From Nitrosopumilus sp. (lineage in GTDB: Archaea > Thermoproteota > Nitrososphaeria > Nitrososphaerales > Nitrosopumilaceae): DNA of 64,000 nt. The DNA lies in contig OZ252243.1 in NCBI GenBank assembly GCA_965249555.1, forward strand, positions 224,001 through 288,000, in the 5' to 3' direction. How positions within the stretch are numbered: the first letter of the stretch is position 1; each line of letters starts with the position of its first letter. Both the position numbers and the translations under genes were made by a program. This document shows positions 47,457-52,797 of the stretch, in pieces. The notes below the pieces were generated by a model. It searched no databases. It had not been told where the DNA came from and saw only the letters and a program-made list of their open reading frames with translations.

Positions 47457-48971
47457 CTAGCTTACCTGTTTTTCTTTTAACATCTTTTTGAGCATAATTC
47501 TATTTATTCCATCAATGACTGCTTGAACACTTGTAGTTACAATATCCTCACCAACTGATTTTGCAGAAACTTTATTTCCTTGTGCATCCTCTACACTAAT
47601 GGTTACTTCACATAATGCATTAGCACCACCAGAAATTGATGCCAATGCATAGTCTTTAATTCTAATTTCCGAAATTTTTCCAGTAATCTTTTGAATTGCA
47701 TTAAGTGATGCATCAACAGGACCAACACCGTGATCAGTTCCTGAATACTCTTTTCCATCAATAGTTAATTTTACAAATGCATAAGGCATTGTTCCAATTC
47801 CAGTGGATACTGAGAATCCAGTTAACTGTACAATTCGTTTAGTTCCTTCATCACCTAAAACATCACTTGCAATGGATAACAACTCTACATCTGAAATTTG
47901 CTTTCCTTGATCACCTAACACCTTAACTTTGTCTAGGATTTGTTGTGATTGTTCTTCATTTGGTTTTACTCCAAATTCTGCAAGCATTGCATTCATTCCA
48001 TGAATTCCTGCATGTTTTCCAACACGAAGTAGTCTCTTTCGTCCTACTAATTCCGGACTGATTGGCTCGTATGTTAATGGATTATTCAACACTCCATGAG
48101 TGTGAATTCCGGATTCATGTCCAAATGCATTATCTCCAACTATAGCCTTGTTTGGCTGTACTTTGATGCCTGCAATCTTCGAGACATATCGTGATGTATC
48201 ATAGATTAATTTAGATTTGATGTTTGTTTCATATTTTTGCTCAAATGGCAAACATTGCAATGCCATGGAGAACTCTTCTAATGATGCATTTCCTGCACGC
48301 TCTCCAATTCCATTAATGGTAACATGTGCACATGCAGCTCCTGCATGAATTCCAGATAATGCGTTTGCAACTGCTAATCCAAAGTCATTATGACAATGAA
48401 CACTGACTGGAAGTTTTGTTACATCAACTGTATCACGAGTTAATTCTGCCATATACTCAGGGGTACAATATCCCACAGTATCAGGAATGTTAACCCTATC
48501 AGCTCCGGCTTTTGCTACTTCGCCAAATACTTTTTTTAAGAATTCTCTATCAGTTCTAGTTGCATCCTCAGCTGAGAACTCAACTTGGAGGCCACGAGAT
48601 TTTCCATATTCTACTGCTTCAATTGCTTTTTCAAGTGCTTGATCACGAGTCATCTTGAGTTTATGTTCCAAATGAATGTCGGATGTTGCAATGAATGTGT
48701 GAATATAGTTTAGTCCTGCATCAACTGCAGAATCAATATCTTTTTTGATAGTTCTAGTTAGTCCTGCAATCTCACATGATAATCCTTCGCTAGTAATCAT
48801 CTTAACTCCTTTGAATTCACCTTCTGAAATTACAGGAAATCCTGCCTCTATTGCATCAACTCCAAGTTCGTCAAGTTTTTTTGCAATAGATAATTTTTGA
48901 TCAGGTGATAATGAAACACCAAGTGTTTGTTCTCCATCTCTTAATGTTGTATCAAATATTCTAACTTTCAT
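47457..48971 (-). CDS. leuA: 2-isopropylmalate (or citramalate) synthase
   Basis: DTTLRDGEQ, HCHND, GERAGN, HESGIH and the GPVDA regulatory domain. Confidence 0.88.
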   Translation of the reverse strand: MKVRIFDTTLRDGEQTLGVSLSPDQKLSIAKKLDELGVDAIEAGFPVISEGEFKGVKMITSEGLSCEIAGLTRTIKKDIDSAVDAGLNYIHTFIATSDIHLEHKLKMTRDQALEKAIEAVEYGKSRGLQVEFSAEDATRTDREFLKKVFGEVAKAGADRVNIPDTVGYCTPEYMAELTRDTVDVTKLPVSVHCHNDFGLAVANALSGIHAGAACAHVTINGIGERAGNASLEEFSMALQCLPFEQKYETNIKSKLIYDTSRYVSKIAGIKVQPNKAIVGDNAFGHESGIHTHGVLNNPLTYEPISPELVGRKRLLRVGKHAGIHGMNAMLAEFGVKPNEEQSQQILDKVKVLGDQGKQISDVELLSIASDVLGDEGTKRIVQLTGFSVSTGIGTMPYAFVKLTIDGKEYSGTDHGVGPVDASLNAIQKITGKISEIRIKDYALASISGGANALCEVTISVEDAQGNKVSAKSVGEDIVTTSVQAVIDGINRIMLKKMLKEKQVS

Positions 48972-49450
48972 GATCCACTCCTTTGCAATGCCGCAACTCC
49001 AGTTCTGGCTATATCAATAATGCCAAATGGTTTTATCAATTCCTCAAATGCTTGGATTTGATGAGGAGTTGCAGTCAATTCTACCATAAGTGACTCTTTT
49101 TTCACATCATGTACTTTTCCACCGTATGCATTAACTATCTTGTTAATCTCCATGCTATCATTAGCATTGCTAAGCTTTATCATAAAAAGACATAGTTCGC
49201 GGTATACTGTTTTGTGCTCATCTAATTGCCTGACTTCTACTGTATCAATCATTTTTTCGAGTTGTTTTACAATCTGTGCAACTCGCTTTTCATCACTATT
49301 AGTAGTAATAGTAATCCTGGAATAATCTGGATTCTCAGTTACCCCTACTGAAATACTATCAATGTTAAAGTTCCTAGATCTGAAAAGATGAGTTATCTTA
49401 AACAAGATTCCAGTTTTGTTTTCAACTAAAAGAGAAATAATCGCCCACAT
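48968..49450 (-). CDS. ilvN: Acetolactate synthase small subunit
   Basis: ACT domain EN..G.L..I..LF..R.FNIDS; ARTG motif. Confidence 0.93.
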   Translation of the reverse strand: MWAIISLLVENKTGILFKITHLFRSRNFNIDSISVGVTENPDYSRITITTNSDEKRVAQIVKQLEKMIDTVEVRQLDEHKTVYRELCLFMIKLSNANDSMEINKIVNAYGGKVHDVKKESLMVELTATPHQIQAFEELIKPFGIIDIARTGVAALQRSGS

Positions 49451-49459
49451 AATTAATCA

Positions 49460-51172
49460 CTATGATGGTAATATCATATCCTCAAGCGAAGTTCCAGGAG
49501 CTACAAATGGTAATACATCTTCTTCAGGGTCAATTGGAATATCAATTACAGTTGCAACATCACTTGATAATGCAGCTTTGATTGCTTTGTCAAGCTCATC
49601 CATTGACTGCGCTCTAATTCCTTGAGCTCCATATGATTCAGCTAGTTTAACATAATCAGGAATATGACCTTGGTCTACTCCAATCATTCTTCTTTTATAG
49701 AATGTTCTTTGCCATTGTGCCACCATCCCTAATGTGTAGTTATTTAAGATAAACACGATTACTGGAATGTCTTCTTGAATAGCAGTTGCAAGGGAGTTTT
49801 CAGTCATTGCAAAGCTTCCATCCCCTGCAATATCCACTACAGGGACATCAGGACGTGCTACTTTGGCACCAATTGATGCTGGAAATCCCCAACCCATAGT
49901 GCCAAGTCCAGTCGAACTAAAGAAAGTGCCAGGTTGAATTACATCATAAAATAATGATGCCCACATTTGGTGTTGTCCTACTTCAGTAGTTACGATAGCT
50001 TCTGGAGGTAATAATTCACGGAGTTTACGTAAAATTTTTGCAGCGCCCATTTCACCTGGATGAATTTTCAAGTTTTCTTTCCAGTATGCTTTTGTCTCTT
50101 TGACATGTTTAATCCAAGTAGACTCTTCAGTTTTTTTGATGACTCTCTGTAAAAGTAATTTTATCATTATTCGAAGTGATGCTTTGACATCTCCAACTAC
50201 TGCAACCTGAGCTGTTTGATTTTTACCAATCTCTGCAGGATCTACATCCATGTGAATGATTTTAAGCCTCTTTTCAAATGCTTCAAAGGTTCCAACTGAT
50301 CTATCAGAGAATCTAGTGCCTATTGCCAACACACAATCAGCTTCTGTCATCATTTTGTTTGCCTCTGCATGTCCATGCATTCCAATTGGCCCTAATGATA
50401 AAGGATGGTTTTCAGGAAATGCGCCCTTTCCTTTGAAAGTAGTAACTACTGGAAGCATAAGCGTTTCAGCAATAGATTGTAATTCAGCAAATGCAGACGA
50501 GATAATAGTTCCGCCACCAGCTAAGATGATTGGTTTTTCTGAATTAAGTAACATATCAATTGCTTTTTCACATGCTGCAATATCAGGATCAGCCCAAGGA
50601 TGATAACCCTGAATTTTAAATTCATCAGGAAATTCCATCTCTGCTGTTCCTGTTTGAACATCTTTTGGAATATCAATAAGTACAGGTCCGGGTCTGCCAG
50701 TCTCTGCAATGTAGAATCCTTTTCTTACAGCTTCTGGAACTTCACCAGGTGTTCTTGGCTGAAATGCATATTTTACAACAGGATTTGACATTCCAATAAT
50801 ATCACTTTCTTGAAATGCATCTCGGCCAATCATATTTACTGGTACTTGGCCAGTTACTGCAATCATTGGTGCAGAATCAGCTTGAGCTGTTGCAATTCCA
50901 GTTAGTATGTTAGTGGCACCAGGTCCTGATGTTGCAAAACAAACACCTGGTTTTCGGCTTACTCTACCAAACCCATCAGCCATATGAGATGCTGACTGTT
51001 CATGTCTTGCCAAAATATGTCTAATATCACATCTAGCAAATTCATCATACATTGGAAGATTGGCACCTCCCGGTAAGCCAAACACTTGTTTGACGCCTTC
51101 TTTTTCCATAGCCGTCATCAAGGCCTTTGCACCTGTCATAGTTTCCATTTTATTTATCAAATCAATCGCCAT
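49460..51172 (-). CDS. ilvB: Acetolactate synthase large subunit (true start may be ATG at 51148)
   Basis: FGLPGG, RHEQ, SGPGATN, GQHQMW and the GDGS…NN TPP motif. Confidence 0.96.
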   Translation of the reverse strand: MAIDLINKMETMTGAKALMTAMEKEGVKQVFGLPGGANLPMYDEFARCDIRHILARHEQSASHMADGFGRVSRKPGVCFATSGPGATNILTGIATAQADSAPMIAVTGQVPVNMIGRDAFQESDIIGMSNPVVKYAFQPRTPGEVPEAVRKGFYIAETGRPGPVLIDIPKDVQTGTAEMEFPDEFKIQGYHPWADPDIAACEKAIDMLLNSEKPIILAGGGTIISSAFAELQSIAETLMLPVVTTFKGKGAFPENHPLSLGPIGMHGHAEANKMMTEADCVLAIGTRFSDRSVGTFEAFEKRLKIIHMDVDPAEIGKNQTAQVAVVGDVKASLRIMIKLLLQRVIKKTEESTWIKHVKETKAYWKENLKIHPGEMGAAKILRKLRELLPPEAIVTTEVGQHQMWASLFYDVIQPGTFFSSTGLGTMGWGFPASIGAKVARPDVPVVDIAGDGSFAMTENSLATAIQEDIPVIVFILNNYTLGMVAQWQRTFYKRRMIGVDQGHIPDYVKLAESYGAQGIRAQSMDELDKAIKAALSSDVATVIDIPIDPEEDVLPFVAPGTSLEDMILPS

Positions 51173-51204
51173 AATTTTAATGAAGTTAAAATTTTAAGCA
51201 CACT

Positions 51205-51264
51205 TTACAGTAGAACAACAACTTGCAAATTCTTGCTAACTGATCCGATTATTTCTGTGCTCAT
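51205..51264 (-). promoter_or_regulatory. Candidate ilv leader peptide MSTEIIGSVSKNLQVVVLL*
   Basis: 9 of 19 codons are Ile/Val/Leu and it ends GTT GTT GTT CTA CTG TAA; TTTATTAA box about 30 nt upstream. Confidence 0.55.
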
Positions 51265-51383
51265 TGAAATCAAAAACAAAACCAATTGATAATTAATAAA
51301 GATTCCCAGAAAAATAATCGTTATTTTGCCTAAATTGTACAGAAGACTTAAACTGATTATTTTCATATTTCAAACTGACTGTT

Positions 51384-51788
51384 TTGATAGATAGTGAAGA
51401 AATCATAAAAATTATCGAGACATTATTTCAAGCTGGAGTAACAAAAGATCTAGCTAAACTAAAAGAGATACATCTTGATGATTCTAGATTTTCAAGCTTT
51501 AGTGATTTGCCACCATATGATCTTAAAGACTATCAAACTACAATAGAATTAGAAGAGTTACGATTCATTAGCATTTCAGATTATAGTTATGAAATCAAAA
51601 ATCCCAAAATCAGTATTTTTGGGAATACTGCAATTGTGGCATTAGAGTTAATTCAGCAAGGAATGCTAGTAGATAACAAAGCATTCACAGGAGAGCACAT
51701 GAAAATTAAGGGACGTGCAACATTTGTTTTAGTTAAAGAACCAACATGGAAAATTGCACACATTCATCTCTCAAAGATTGAAGGGTAG
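51384..51788 (+). CDS. NTF2-like (SnoaL/DUF4440) protein
   Basis: GNTAIV, RATFVL and WKIAHIHLS motifs. Confidence 0.85.
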   Translation: MIDSEEIIKIIETLFQAGVTKDLAKLKEIHLDDSRFSSFSDLPPYDLKDYQTTIELEELRFISISDYSYEIKNPKISIFGNTAIVALELIQQGMLVDNKAFTGEHMKIKGRATFVLVKEPTWKIAHIHLSKIEG

Positions 51789-51789
51789 A

Positions 51790-52797
51790 CTATTTCTTTG
51801 ATGTATTAGGTTTGTTTTGATCAGGTTTGTTTTGATCAGGTTTGTTTTGATCAGGTTTGTTTTGATCAGGTTTGTTTTGATCAGGTTTGTTTTGATCAGG
51901 TTTGTTTTGATCAGGTTTGTTTTGATCAGGTTTGTTTTGAGGTTTGTTTTGAGGTTTGTTTTGATCAGGTTTGTTTTGATCAGGTTTGTTTTGATTGTTT
52001 TTCTTTTTTGGATCTTCACTGACTATTTTGTTGTACAAGTTGTATGCTTGGTCAACATTTGCATTTCCATGAACTATAGATCGTACTGCTTTAATCATTG
52101 CAACAGGATGTTCTGATTGCCAGATGTTTCGTCCCATGTCAACACCAACTGCACCACCTTTGATTGAGTTGTATGTTAATTGTAATGCATCACGTTCTGG
52201 AATTTTCTTTCCTCCTGCAACAATAATTGGAACAGGACATGATTGAACAACTTTCTCAAAATTTTCACAATAGTATGTTTTGACAATATGTGCTCCTTGC
52301 TCAGCTGCAATTCTGCATGCCAATGAAAGATATCTTGAATCTTTACCTAGGTCTTTTCCAACTGCAGTAACAGCCAATACAGGAATTCCATATTTTTCTG
52401 CTTTACTGACTAATTTCCCAAGATTTACAATAGTTTGATGCTCATATTTAGAGCCAACAAAGATAGACATTGCAAGTGCGCTAGCGTTAAGTCTAATTGC
52501 GTCTTGAATCGAAACTGTAATTTCTTCTTGAGATAAATCCTCACCAATAATACTTGAGCCGCCAGAAACTCTCAACACCATTGGAGTGTCAGTGGTTGCA
52601 GGAACACATGTTCTCTGAACACCCCTTGTAACCATTAAAGAGTCACAATATTTCAAAAGAGGCGCAATTACCTTTTTTGGATTCTCTAATTTTTCAGTTG
52701 GACCAAGAAAGTATCCATGATCAACTGCTAACATTAATGCGCGATTATTATGTGGTTTAATGATTTGTGATATTCTATTTTTTAATCCCCAGTCCAT
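51790..52797 (-). CDS. lsrF: LsrF/DhnA-family class I aldolase/thiolase with a (DQNKP)n tail
   Basis: MDWG.KNR, AVDHGYF.GP, VKTYY, AGGKK and DMGRNIWQ motifs. Confidence 0.85.
   Translation of the reverse strand: MDWGLKNRISQIIKPHNNRALMLAVDHGYFLGPTEKLENPKKVIAPLLKYCDSLMVTRGVQRTCVPATTDTPMVLRVSGGSSIIGEDLSQEEITVSIQDAIRLNASALAMSIFVGSKYEHQTIVNLGKLVSKAEKYGIPVLAVTAVGKDLGKDSRYLSLACRIAAEQGAHIVKTYYCENFEKVVQSCPVPIIVAGGKKIPERDALQLTYNSIKGGAVGVDMGRNIWQSEHPVAMIKAVRSIVHGNANVDQAYNLYNKIVSEDPKKKNNQNKPDQNKPDQNKPQNKPQNKPDQNKPDQNKPDQNKPDQNKPDQNKPDQNKPDQNKPDQNKPNTSKK
51808..51996. repeat. 15/12-bp tandem repeat AGGTTTGTTTTG(ATC), 13 units
   Basis: Eight 15-bp, two 12-bp and three 15-bp units, all in frame. Confidence 0.95.

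Follow-up and report, generated by a model that had tools for sequence, protein, structure and literature searches.

The window analysed here is the whole 64,000-nucleotide (nt) stretch taken from the Nitrosopumilus sp. genome designated G000 (2.23 Mb, one contig, 34% G+C). A search of this genome finds archaeal amoA, and the host is therefore an ammonia-oxidising archaeon. The minus strand of the window carries an ilvB-ilvN-leuA operon, and a short open reading frame (ORF) that ends in a run of Val and Leu codons lies directly upstream of ilvB. An earlier reading of the same DNA (the original prediction) had proposed that this ORF encodes a branched-chain-amino-acid leader peptide. The operon, the leader ORF and the promoter-like element in front of it are as follows.

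47457..51172, minus strand: ilvB-ilvN-leuA as a block, the genes that the leader ORF would control
49460..51172, minus strand: ilvB, acetolactate synthase large subunit (570 amino acids; TIGR00118 of NCBIfam, 707 bits, cut-off 538)
48968..49450, minus strand: ilvN, acetolactate synthase small subunit (TIGR00119 of NCBIfam, 166 bits)
47457..48971, minus strand: leuA, 2-isopropylmalate synthase (NF002085 of NCBIfam, 630 bits)
51205..51264, minus strand: leader ORF, 19 codons plus TAA, encoding MSTEIIGSVSKNLQVVVLL (ATG 51264..51262, TAA 51207..51205)
51208..51222, minus strand: putative regulatory tail Val-Val-Val-Leu-Leu, the last five leader codons (GTT GTT GTT CTA CTG)
51293..51307, minus strand: putative distal promoter, TATA-like TTTATTAA (51300..51293) with a purine-rich stretch just upstream

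Ile, Val and Leu account for 9 of the 19 leader residues, and a 32-nt spacer (51204..51173) separates the leader stop from the annotated ilvB ATG at 51172. These details, including the three GTT and two Leu codons, had been given correctly in the original prediction, which also placed a TATA-like box about 30 nt before the leader ATG; the measured gap between the end of the box and the ATG is 28 nt. A 53-codon version of the ORF (51205..51366), starting from an in-frame ATG at 51366 on the minus strand, was considered and rejected, as the extension crosses the TATA box and is closed by stop codons in many relatives. The conserved leader start is probably at 51264, and the ATG at 51366 is probably not a real start.

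In G000, 234 of the 24,603 ATG-started ORFs of 12–26 codons have Leu, Ile or Val at six or more of their last eight residues, and the density of such tails (5.2e-5 per nt per strand) corresponds arithmetically to about 6.7 per 64-kb window and 0.003 per given 60-nt target. Because a single ORF of this kind is not beyond chance, with significance coming from its position, the case for the leader ORF rests on conservation. Among the intergenic small ORFs of this genome, 12 of 1835 (9 distinct stops) have a Leu/Ile/Val tail, and the one at ilvB alone has a correctly spaced TATA box as judged by eye.

Of 121 genomes from the family, 118 yielded the ilvB gene (a tally that includes three unpublished genomes, of which no DNA was used), and it was also located in other families of the class and of the phylum. 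The sample comprised 150 ilvB upstream regions: the family contributed 130, spread over 26 genera, and other families of the class the remaining 20; genera, families and loci are denoted below by g, f and L numbers, g1 being the genus of the window itself. The definition was fixed before counting: an ATG-started ORF of 9–30 codons that ends 20–80 nt before the conserved ilvB N-terminus, with Leu, Ile and Val scored in the last eight residues. An ORF with at least six such residues is present at 92 of the 150 loci and one with at least five at 113, counts that overstate the statistical weight in that related genomes are not independent; within the family alone the figures are 85/130 and 105/130. 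The reverse strand of the same stretches gives 0 (six of eight) and 9 (five of eight), and fifty mononucleotide shuffles give a mean of 0.52 and a maximum of 2 at six of eight, and a mean of 3.38 and a maximum of 7 at five of eight. The leader ORF is seen in 21 of the 26 sampled genera of the family, and elsewhere in the class it occurs in f7 (4/4 loci), f8 (3/3) and f4 (1/2); TTG-started versions were seen by eye in f12 (L084) and f4 (L086). A search that finds the amoA of G000 did not detect this gene in one genome each of f8, f7, f4, f12 and f30 (completeness 85–99%). The tail is kept among lineages whose leaders share no nucleotide similarity, and GC-rich tails read ...FLLAVLL, ...ALIVLLIVV and ...LLLLVLLN up to the stop codon. 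The check suggested in the original prediction, a conserved upstream ORF (uORF) with terminal Val, Leu or Ile codons and synonymous variation upstream of ilvB in relatives, is accordingly positive (113/150 at five of eight, with 9 on the reverse strand).

When 70 distinct tails of the family are aligned at the stop codon, the mean column entropy at the first, second and third positions of the tail codons is 1.35, 0.98 and 1.58 bits, second positions being the most conserved, and T at the second position is almost invariant in codons -7, -5, -3, -2 and -1. Leu is the last leader residue in 63 of these tails, and position -5 is Val, Leu or Ile in 67, while the N-terminal two thirds of the peptides vary freely and their length ranges from 9 to 26 residues. 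Among tail Leu codons, CTG makes up 40.6% and CTA 26.6%, versus 7.3% and 17.4% in long ORFs (the genome reference being G000 only), and GC-rich relatives encode the Leu/Val tail with different codons. The alignments indicate that the leader ORF is conserved as a reading frame, beyond its nucleotides. A cluster of codons for the end products of an operon within its 5′ leader is characteristic of attenuators, and such a cluster (Val3-Leu2) stands here before ilvB-ilvN-leuA. An exact look-up of five leader peptides of at least 20 amino acids found none of them in a collection of 15 billion proteins, and the leader ORF is therefore regarded as unannotated. In G000, a crude search for leader ORFs matched to other products (His, Trp, Phe, Thr, Cys, Met, Arg, Pro, Tyr and Lys) gave nothing convincing.

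TATA-like hexamers in G000 peak at -30..-26 from ATGs, and TTTAAA occurs 39 times in that bin versus at most 18 times in any other; this genome-wide position is the habit of leaderless or short-leader mRNAs. At the leader ORF, a TATA-like hexamer is found at -38..-26 from the ATG in 103 of the 113 leader-bearing loci (at -36..-38 in 73), and the ten loci outside this spacing are mostly cases in which a nested ATG was chosen by the script. The leaderless type of transcript envisaged in the original prediction is compatible with this kept spacing. A GAGAATCTTTATTAAT-like block at the distal promoter is kept across genera, and the purine-rich stretch upstream of the distal TATA box may resemble a B recognition element (BRE). 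The 5′ untranslated region is predicted to be about 6–7 nt long for this leader and 0–2 nt in some variant leaders.

RNA data were taken from assembled contigs of public RNA libraries, sharing 5–12% of words with the region. In run X6 (a cDNA metatranscriptome), a 724-nt contig from a relative with about 92% identity covers 50533..51246 and 10 more letters. The contig connects ilvB through the spacer to the leader ORF, reaching the ninth nt of the ORF (8 nt short of the ATG), and X6 gives no cover from 51269 to 51800, upstream of the leader. Since the contig spans ilvB to the leader ORF, at least some transcripts would start upstream of the uORF, a weak hint of transcripts that start at the leader and continue into ilvB. 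A transcription start site downstream of the uORF had been named as counter-evidence to the original prediction; the X6 contig, which reaches into the uORF, points the other way, although a proximal promoter-like element (described below) may start part of ilvB transcription downstream. Runs X1 and X2 were set aside as transcript evidence, their RNA nature being doubtful.

The leader RNA contains two helices, P1 and P2, and a short T-containing tract.

51256..51263, minus strand: 5′ arm of helix P1, UG of the AUG plus codons 2–3, TGAGCACA
51195..51202, minus strand: 3′ arm of helix P1, nt +3..+10 after the stop, TGTGCTTA; pairs with 51256..51263
51224..51237, minus strand: helix P2, a hairpin inside the ORF (51237..51233 with 51228..51224), 4 base pairs (bp) GCAA/TTGC in this genome
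51187..51194, minus strand: AAAATTTT tract directly after P1, only four T in a row

Covariation of the helices was assessed in alignment A2, which holds 29 leaders of genera g1, g4 and g17. In P1 (columns 10–17 with 71–78), 83% of cells are paired and 6/8 pairs have changed on both sides; in P2 (columns 36–40 with 45–49), 79% of cells are paired and 4/5 pairs have changed on both sides. Taken jointly, 81.5% of cells are paired versus 32–47% with slid partners, double changes occur in 10/13 pairs, and the covariation score is reached by none of 500 shuffles. The P1 duplex has an energy of -5.35 kcal/mol with its own partners versus -3.72 ± 0.24 with permuted ones (0/500 permutations as good), and the natural compensatory pairs include GAGCAC/GTGCTC, GAGTAC/GTACTC, GTGTGT/ACACAC and GGGCGC/GCGCCC. 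The Val/Leu tail of g1 lies outside both P1 and P2. A covariance model of the g1-type leader has one match in G000, at the leader itself (E 3.4e-11), and of 31 genomes from the genus it matches 15, none of them more than once (139 candidates scored per genome; misses are expected); the four matches that can be placed all lie directly upstream of ilvB. Rfam (4227 families, E up to 1) gives no match, including the amino-acid leader families of the Leu_leader type. A hairpin of AAAATTTTAA with TTAAAATT in the minimum free energy structure of this genome was rejected, as the pairing is not kept in close relatives with ..AAAATTTAC.., and the sigma-70 promoter matches in the window, no more numerous than chance predicts, have no bearing on an archaeon.

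Other genera have a hairpin whose 5′ arm is made up of the last codon and the stop codon, with a T-rich run after it. When 30 type-A leaders were aligned with MAFFT, RNAalifold gave a single invariant 5-bp stem and the stop-codon hairpin was misaligned, and hairpins were therefore counted per sequence. By a strict definition, a hairpin plus T-rich run at the stop occurs in 29 of 107 distinct windows around the stop codon, versus 5.2 ± 2.0 in shuffles and 0/113 in ilvB coding controls; by genus, the counts are 8/8 in g20, 5/5 in g6 and 4/5 in g15. Folding of the stop windows gives a mean z of -1.14 with 29% below -2 (ilvB coding controls, mean z -0.47 and 6%). At L084 of f12, GCGGCC...GGCCGC, six T, GAGGTGA and ATG stand in succession. 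The archaeal intrinsic terminator requires a run of at least five T, the AAAATTTT tract of this window has four, and relatives in other genera have T5–T6 runs; the tract may serve as a weak termination or pause site. The statement in the original prediction that no classical terminator/antiterminator pair is evident thus holds in this window but does not extend to other genera, in which the stop codon lies in a hairpin with a T-rich run.

A second conserved element lies between the leader and ilvB, close to two candidate starts of ilvB.

51169..51187, minus strand: second conserved element, (A)AC..ATTAAAATTATGG, ..ACTTCATTAAAATTATGG, between leader and ilvB
51146..51172, minus strand: candidate ilvB starts, the annotated ATG at 51172 and a second in-frame ATG at 51148 (residue 9)

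The core of this element is at a fixed -32..-36 from the downstream ATG (the equivalent of 51148) in most genera that carry it, and the element is also present in genera without the leader ORF (g2, g19, g13, g5 and g8), some of them GC-rich. On the simplest reading it would serve as a proximal TATA box from which an almost leaderless ilvB mRNA is made; alternatively, an 8-codon N-terminal extension or mini-ORF may have its start context there. It is absent from g6, g9, g11, g12, g20, g25 and g26, in which the stop, a hairpin, a T-rich run, GGTGA and the ATG follow within 29–60 nt with no TATA-like element between, and in these seven genera the leader ORF must therefore be on the ilvB mRNA. The 8-codon stretch between the two ATGs is in frame in this genome. 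In g4 (L005, L010, L012, L016, L018 and L021), a TAA that abuts the next ATG (..TAAATG..) splits the two ATGs, as does a frameshift in g17 (L006–L009 and L015), and ilvB therefore starts at the second ATG in both genera.

The leftover in g4 and g17 is a 7-codon mini-ORF (MEKNLVN or MEKDLIE, then stop), and 6- to 7-codon ORFs that end just before ilvB are also seen in g3, g14, g15 and g23. The mini-ORF before the second ATG may be a second uORF or a by-product of a promoter plus a Shine–Dalgarno (SD) sequence. At L003 and L097, which represent two species of g1, the leader ORF and the distal promoter are lost and the proximal TTTTAAATTATGG element is kept.

Several upstream regions depart from the common arrangement. 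A second leader type (..SSILLLEVLY or ..TLLLLVLLN, then stop) occurs at g1 loci L013, L019 and L110, at L021 of g4 and at L031 of g14, that is, in single species of three genera; its TATA box lies at -29..-31, which makes it truly leaderless, and a palindromic A/T-rich hairpin lies 3′ of its stop. Its occurrence next to the common type suggests exchange or parallel turnover of leaders. At L071–L073 of f2, a TATA box is followed by a longer ORF that shares ..SHPYMLY.. and has no Leu/Val tail; in one f2 genome this ORF contains the Met-rich stretch ..CMMRMMMVCM... In 40 regions upstream of ilvB, drawn from 21 further families of the phylum, no clear ATG-started leader was found, and ilvB directly follows another gene in several families. 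At f30 loci L157 and L158, a frame ...VVILK up to the stop, without ATG, is immediately followed by a 10-bp GC-rich hairpin (GCGCCTTAAG...CTTAAGGCGC), an SD sequence of GGTGA type and ilvB; the frame is possibly a leader ORF with a non-ATG start. In other classes of the phylum (f37, f45, f44 and f29; loci L171, L177, L180, L183, L184 and L185), a conserved mini-ORF M-x-G-G-(Y)-T-L-Q-V-stop lies about 50–85 nt before ilvB and overlaps a GGG..ACCCTCC hairpin, and may be a different kind of ilvB leader.

What is observed at this locus is the ORF, the conservation of its coding frame, a kept promoter spacing, helices that covary and linkage to ilvB alone. The residues conserved in the frame are products of the operon only, positioned right before the stop codon, and one arm of the conserved helices is no more than about 10 nt from that stop. 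A Val/Leu gauge read by the ribosome is the favoured reading. We consider it reasonably likely, with some way to go to certainty, that the leader ORF is a translated, cis-acting, Val/Leu-sensing leader peptide gene of the ilvB-ilvN-leuA operon. The branched-chain leader-peptide interpretation of the original prediction is strengthened by the conserved frame, the TATA spacing and the X6 contig, and from these we infer regulation itself, that is, translation of the leader, ribosome stalling, the direction of the response and the transcriptional level of control.

In the proposed mechanism, transcription would start from the conserved distal TATA box about 6–7 nt before the AUG, as the spacing suggests, and a ribosome would load on the nascent, nearly leaderless message. 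When charged tRNA-Val or tRNA-Leu is scarce, the ribosome would stall on the Val/Leu codons adjoining the stop and cover the RNA just downstream, which would block closing of an 'off' helix. This helix would be P1 in g1 (AUG-proximal codons paired with nt +3..+10 after the stop) and, in other genera, the hairpin formed with the last codon and the stop, ahead of the T-rich run. When Val and Leu are ample, the ribosome would be released at the stop and the helix would close, so that transcription or use of the transcript would end before ilvB, via an intrinsic U-tract or termination of the FttA/aCPSF1 type. By burying the AUG, P1 would also limit each leader transcript to one ribosome.

A number of points weigh against this reading. 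Within the family, no such ORF is found in g2 (0/5 loci), g5 (0/4), g8 (0/1), g13 (0/4) and g19 (0/2), nor is one found at the examined loci of f2 (0/3), f3 (0/3) and f9 (0/4). Shuffled sequences fold as well as the leader of this window (z -0.44), the terminator scan of 50900..51600, which the AAAATTTT tract fails, gives no terminator-like site, and no antiterminator or alternative pairing was identified. The same holds for g1 as a whole, in which the stop-window fold is not special (mean z -0.17) and 1/24 windows is terminator-like. Judged by its geometry, the 3′ arm of P1 would lie under a stalled ribosome only if the stall fell on one of the last two or three codons. A ribosome that keeps close to the polymerase without stalling might also help the polymerase past the site. 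In this genome, the proximal promoter-like element could transcribe ilvB independently of the leader. The RNA support is one contig of one study, derived from a relative and from a library that possibly holds DNA, and a 3108-nt contig of RNA library X7, which spans the whole region, is uninformative. Translation, stalling and regulation are proposed from sequence.

The proximal element is the starting point of an explanation that is in part a variant of the leader-peptide reading and not its opposite: the leader would be translated, but would occlude or feed a separate proximal ilvB promoter, the distal unit being a short transcription unit that ends before 51169..51187 and distal read-through only modulating, by interference or addition, a leaderless ilvB mRNA from the proximal TATA box. 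The ..TTAAAATTATGG core keeps a constant -32..-36 from the second ATG, in line with where TATA boxes lie genome-wide, and the element is the sole promoter candidate in the genera without the leader ORF, GC-rich ones included. It is nevertheless lacking in the seven genera in which the leader ORF stands 29–60 nt before ilvB, several genera that do carry it have an SD-like GGTGA before the second ATG, which is sensible only on a leadered mRNA, and the X6 contig crosses it; we regard this explanation as unlikely. The same short stop-to-start distance (29–60 nt) would also suit a uORF that acts on ilvB translation, either constitutively by termination–reinitiation or as a ribosome landing pad, with no Val/Leu sensing and another cause for the hydrophobic tail, or by sensing that opens up the ribosome-binding site of ilvB, the way mycobacterial Cys leaders or ermC work. 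The nearly leaderless message likewise recalls the mycobacterial leaderless small ORF (sORF) attenuators, which are described in the relevant part of bioRxiv 10.1101/834739 as acting on translation. However, a tail of exactly the products of the operon, kept despite unrelated nucleotide sequence, is unexpected for a spacer, and release of a sequestered SD sequence is not supported in a folding test of four locus groups, in which a simulated stall at codon -3 leaves the predicted accessibility of the ilvB start region unaltered, with values of 0.49 to 0.49 (30 loci), 0.49 to 0.52 (35), 0.46 to 0.38 (3) and 0.55 to 0.56 (15). Action on translation is in our estimate no more probable than a separate proximal promoter.

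What is conserved might instead be the nucleic acid, as a structured RNA or a DNA operator (for example, of an Lrp-type regulator), with the open frame being incidental. P1 and P2 do covary, and some tails contain palindromes (CTAG...CTAG or GTCGAC); yet ATG, frame and stop are kept in 113/150 loci (9 on the opposite strand), conservation follows a period of three bases, second positions being T, the g1 tail lies outside both helices and Rfam holds no match, which leaves a purely nucleic-acid element rather improbable. Lower still we place a small hydrophobic peptide that acts in trans on a membrane or an enzyme, its proximity to ilvB reflecting co-expression only. Its hydrophobic C-terminus would fit, and some bacterial leader peptides have functions in trans (peTrpL, as presented in a passage of PMC7298713); the freely varying N-terminal two thirds and the length range of 9 to 26 residues do not fit, eight hydrophobic residues are too few to span a membrane, no related protein cluster is known from the searches, and the ORF is found at ilvB only.

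In a broader form, the leader-peptide reading would hold that ribosome-mediated amino-acid sensing by leader peptides exists in Archaea and is old and widespread in Nitrososphaeria, in ammonia oxidisers as well as in relatives without detectable amoA, as a compact, stop-abutting device that works with archaeal RNA polymerase and in which the stalled ribosome directly blocks a helix or termination site; to this combination as a whole we give an even chance. The device would be a known kind of control, here in a new domain of life and with a compact layout.

Enterobacterial attenuators at ivbL (ilvBN), ilvL (ilvGMEDA) and leuL depend on 1:2, 2:3 and 3:4 hairpins that exclude one another, together with an intrinsic terminator of the bacterial kind. 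The archaeal leader is like them in that product codons stand in the leader ORF and the position of the ribosome would decide on read-through, and unlike them in that no Rfam leader family matches it. In E. coli tnaC, a ribosome held at the end of the leader ORF by the peptide and free tryptophan masks the RNA by the stop codon from Rho. If FttA/aCPSF1 is the terminator in these archaea, a ribosome at the end of the ORF would similarly shield the stop-adjacent RNA, with the differences that a hungry-codon stall is proposed and that the factor would be FttA and not Rho.

The closest described system is IlvL of C. glutamicum, which in the relevant section of PMC11857589 is a leaderless 15-amino-acid, Ile/Val/Leu-rich ORF (MTIIRLVVVTARRLP) upstream of ilvBNC with transcription starting one nt before the start codon and hence no ribosome-binding site; the ilvBNC leader, at 292 nt, forms terminator, antiterminator and anti-antiterminator hairpins and gives rise to a short transcript that has been demonstrated (PMC11857589). 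Both systems, as far as that section describes IlvL, have a short Ile/Val/Leu-rich ORF before ilvB-ilvN and a first hairpin over the initiation site, which here is P1; the archaeal message is predicted to be nearly leaderless as well. The archaeal leader differs in that it is 90–120 nt long, has its putative regulatory codons directly against the stop, showed no antiterminator and is transcribed by an archaeal RNA polymerase. The leaderless polycysteine sORFs of mycobacteria, in which stalling at cognate codons controls translation by freeing an SD sequence (bioRxiv 10.1101/834739, in the part concerned), resemble it as short first cistrons before a biosynthetic operon, the archaeal one being predicted to be nearly leaderless, and differ from it in that the folding test shows no freed SD sequence in the archaeal leader. 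Archaeal termination by oligo-U and FttA/aCPSF1 is treated in passages of PMC13681488 and PMC13675443, and the T-rich runs after the leader hairpins of g20, g6 and g15 resemble the hairpin-enhanced terminators described there; unlike oligo-U terminators, this window has only four T in a row. Those passages mention no leader peptides or attenuation in archaea, and a term search of the latter paper, a 2026 review of termination across domains, finds neither 'attenuation' nor 'leader peptide'. According to a general remark in the introduction of the uORF4u paper, uORFs also act in archaea (PMC10219788). No published leader-peptide attenuator in any archaeon was found in a full-text literature search that did not cover subscription journals.

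Textbook leader-peptide attenuation is a bacterial mechanism that needs a ribosome close behind RNA polymerase. If the leader-peptide reading is true, the element would be direct, physiologically used evidence for functional transcription–translation coupling in archaea, evidence that is called scarce in a passage of PMC13681488. The element is short and testable, with a start codon, five putative regulatory codons and two helices with natural compensatory variants. Its hosts belong to a group among the most abundant archaea of the ocean, in whose genomes the leader ORF would be an unannotated functional mini-gene and a handle on the tuning of amino-acid synthesis by ammonia oxidisers.

Around the operon, an Iso_dh (leuB-like) gene lies 335 nt downstream of ilvB-ilvN-leuA, and a SnoaL-like gene that starts at 51384 is divergent from it. 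A tRNA-Leu(CAG) gene was found in a tRNA scan. Elsewhere in G000, a repeated block containing ATTACACAAAAAGATCTAAGATCAACT at -48..-25 upstream of about 25–30 long ORFs dominates the 8-mers enriched before ATGs, and may be a repeated promoter, a gene family or a mobile element. Outside the window, three near-identical small ORFs (..MTGIMWDNNGDENYKW) are present on contig C1 of G000 at about 2136813, 2146872 and 2148486 on the minus strand, and each sits 77 nt before an ORF of 126–147 amino acids, which makes a repeated small-gene pair.

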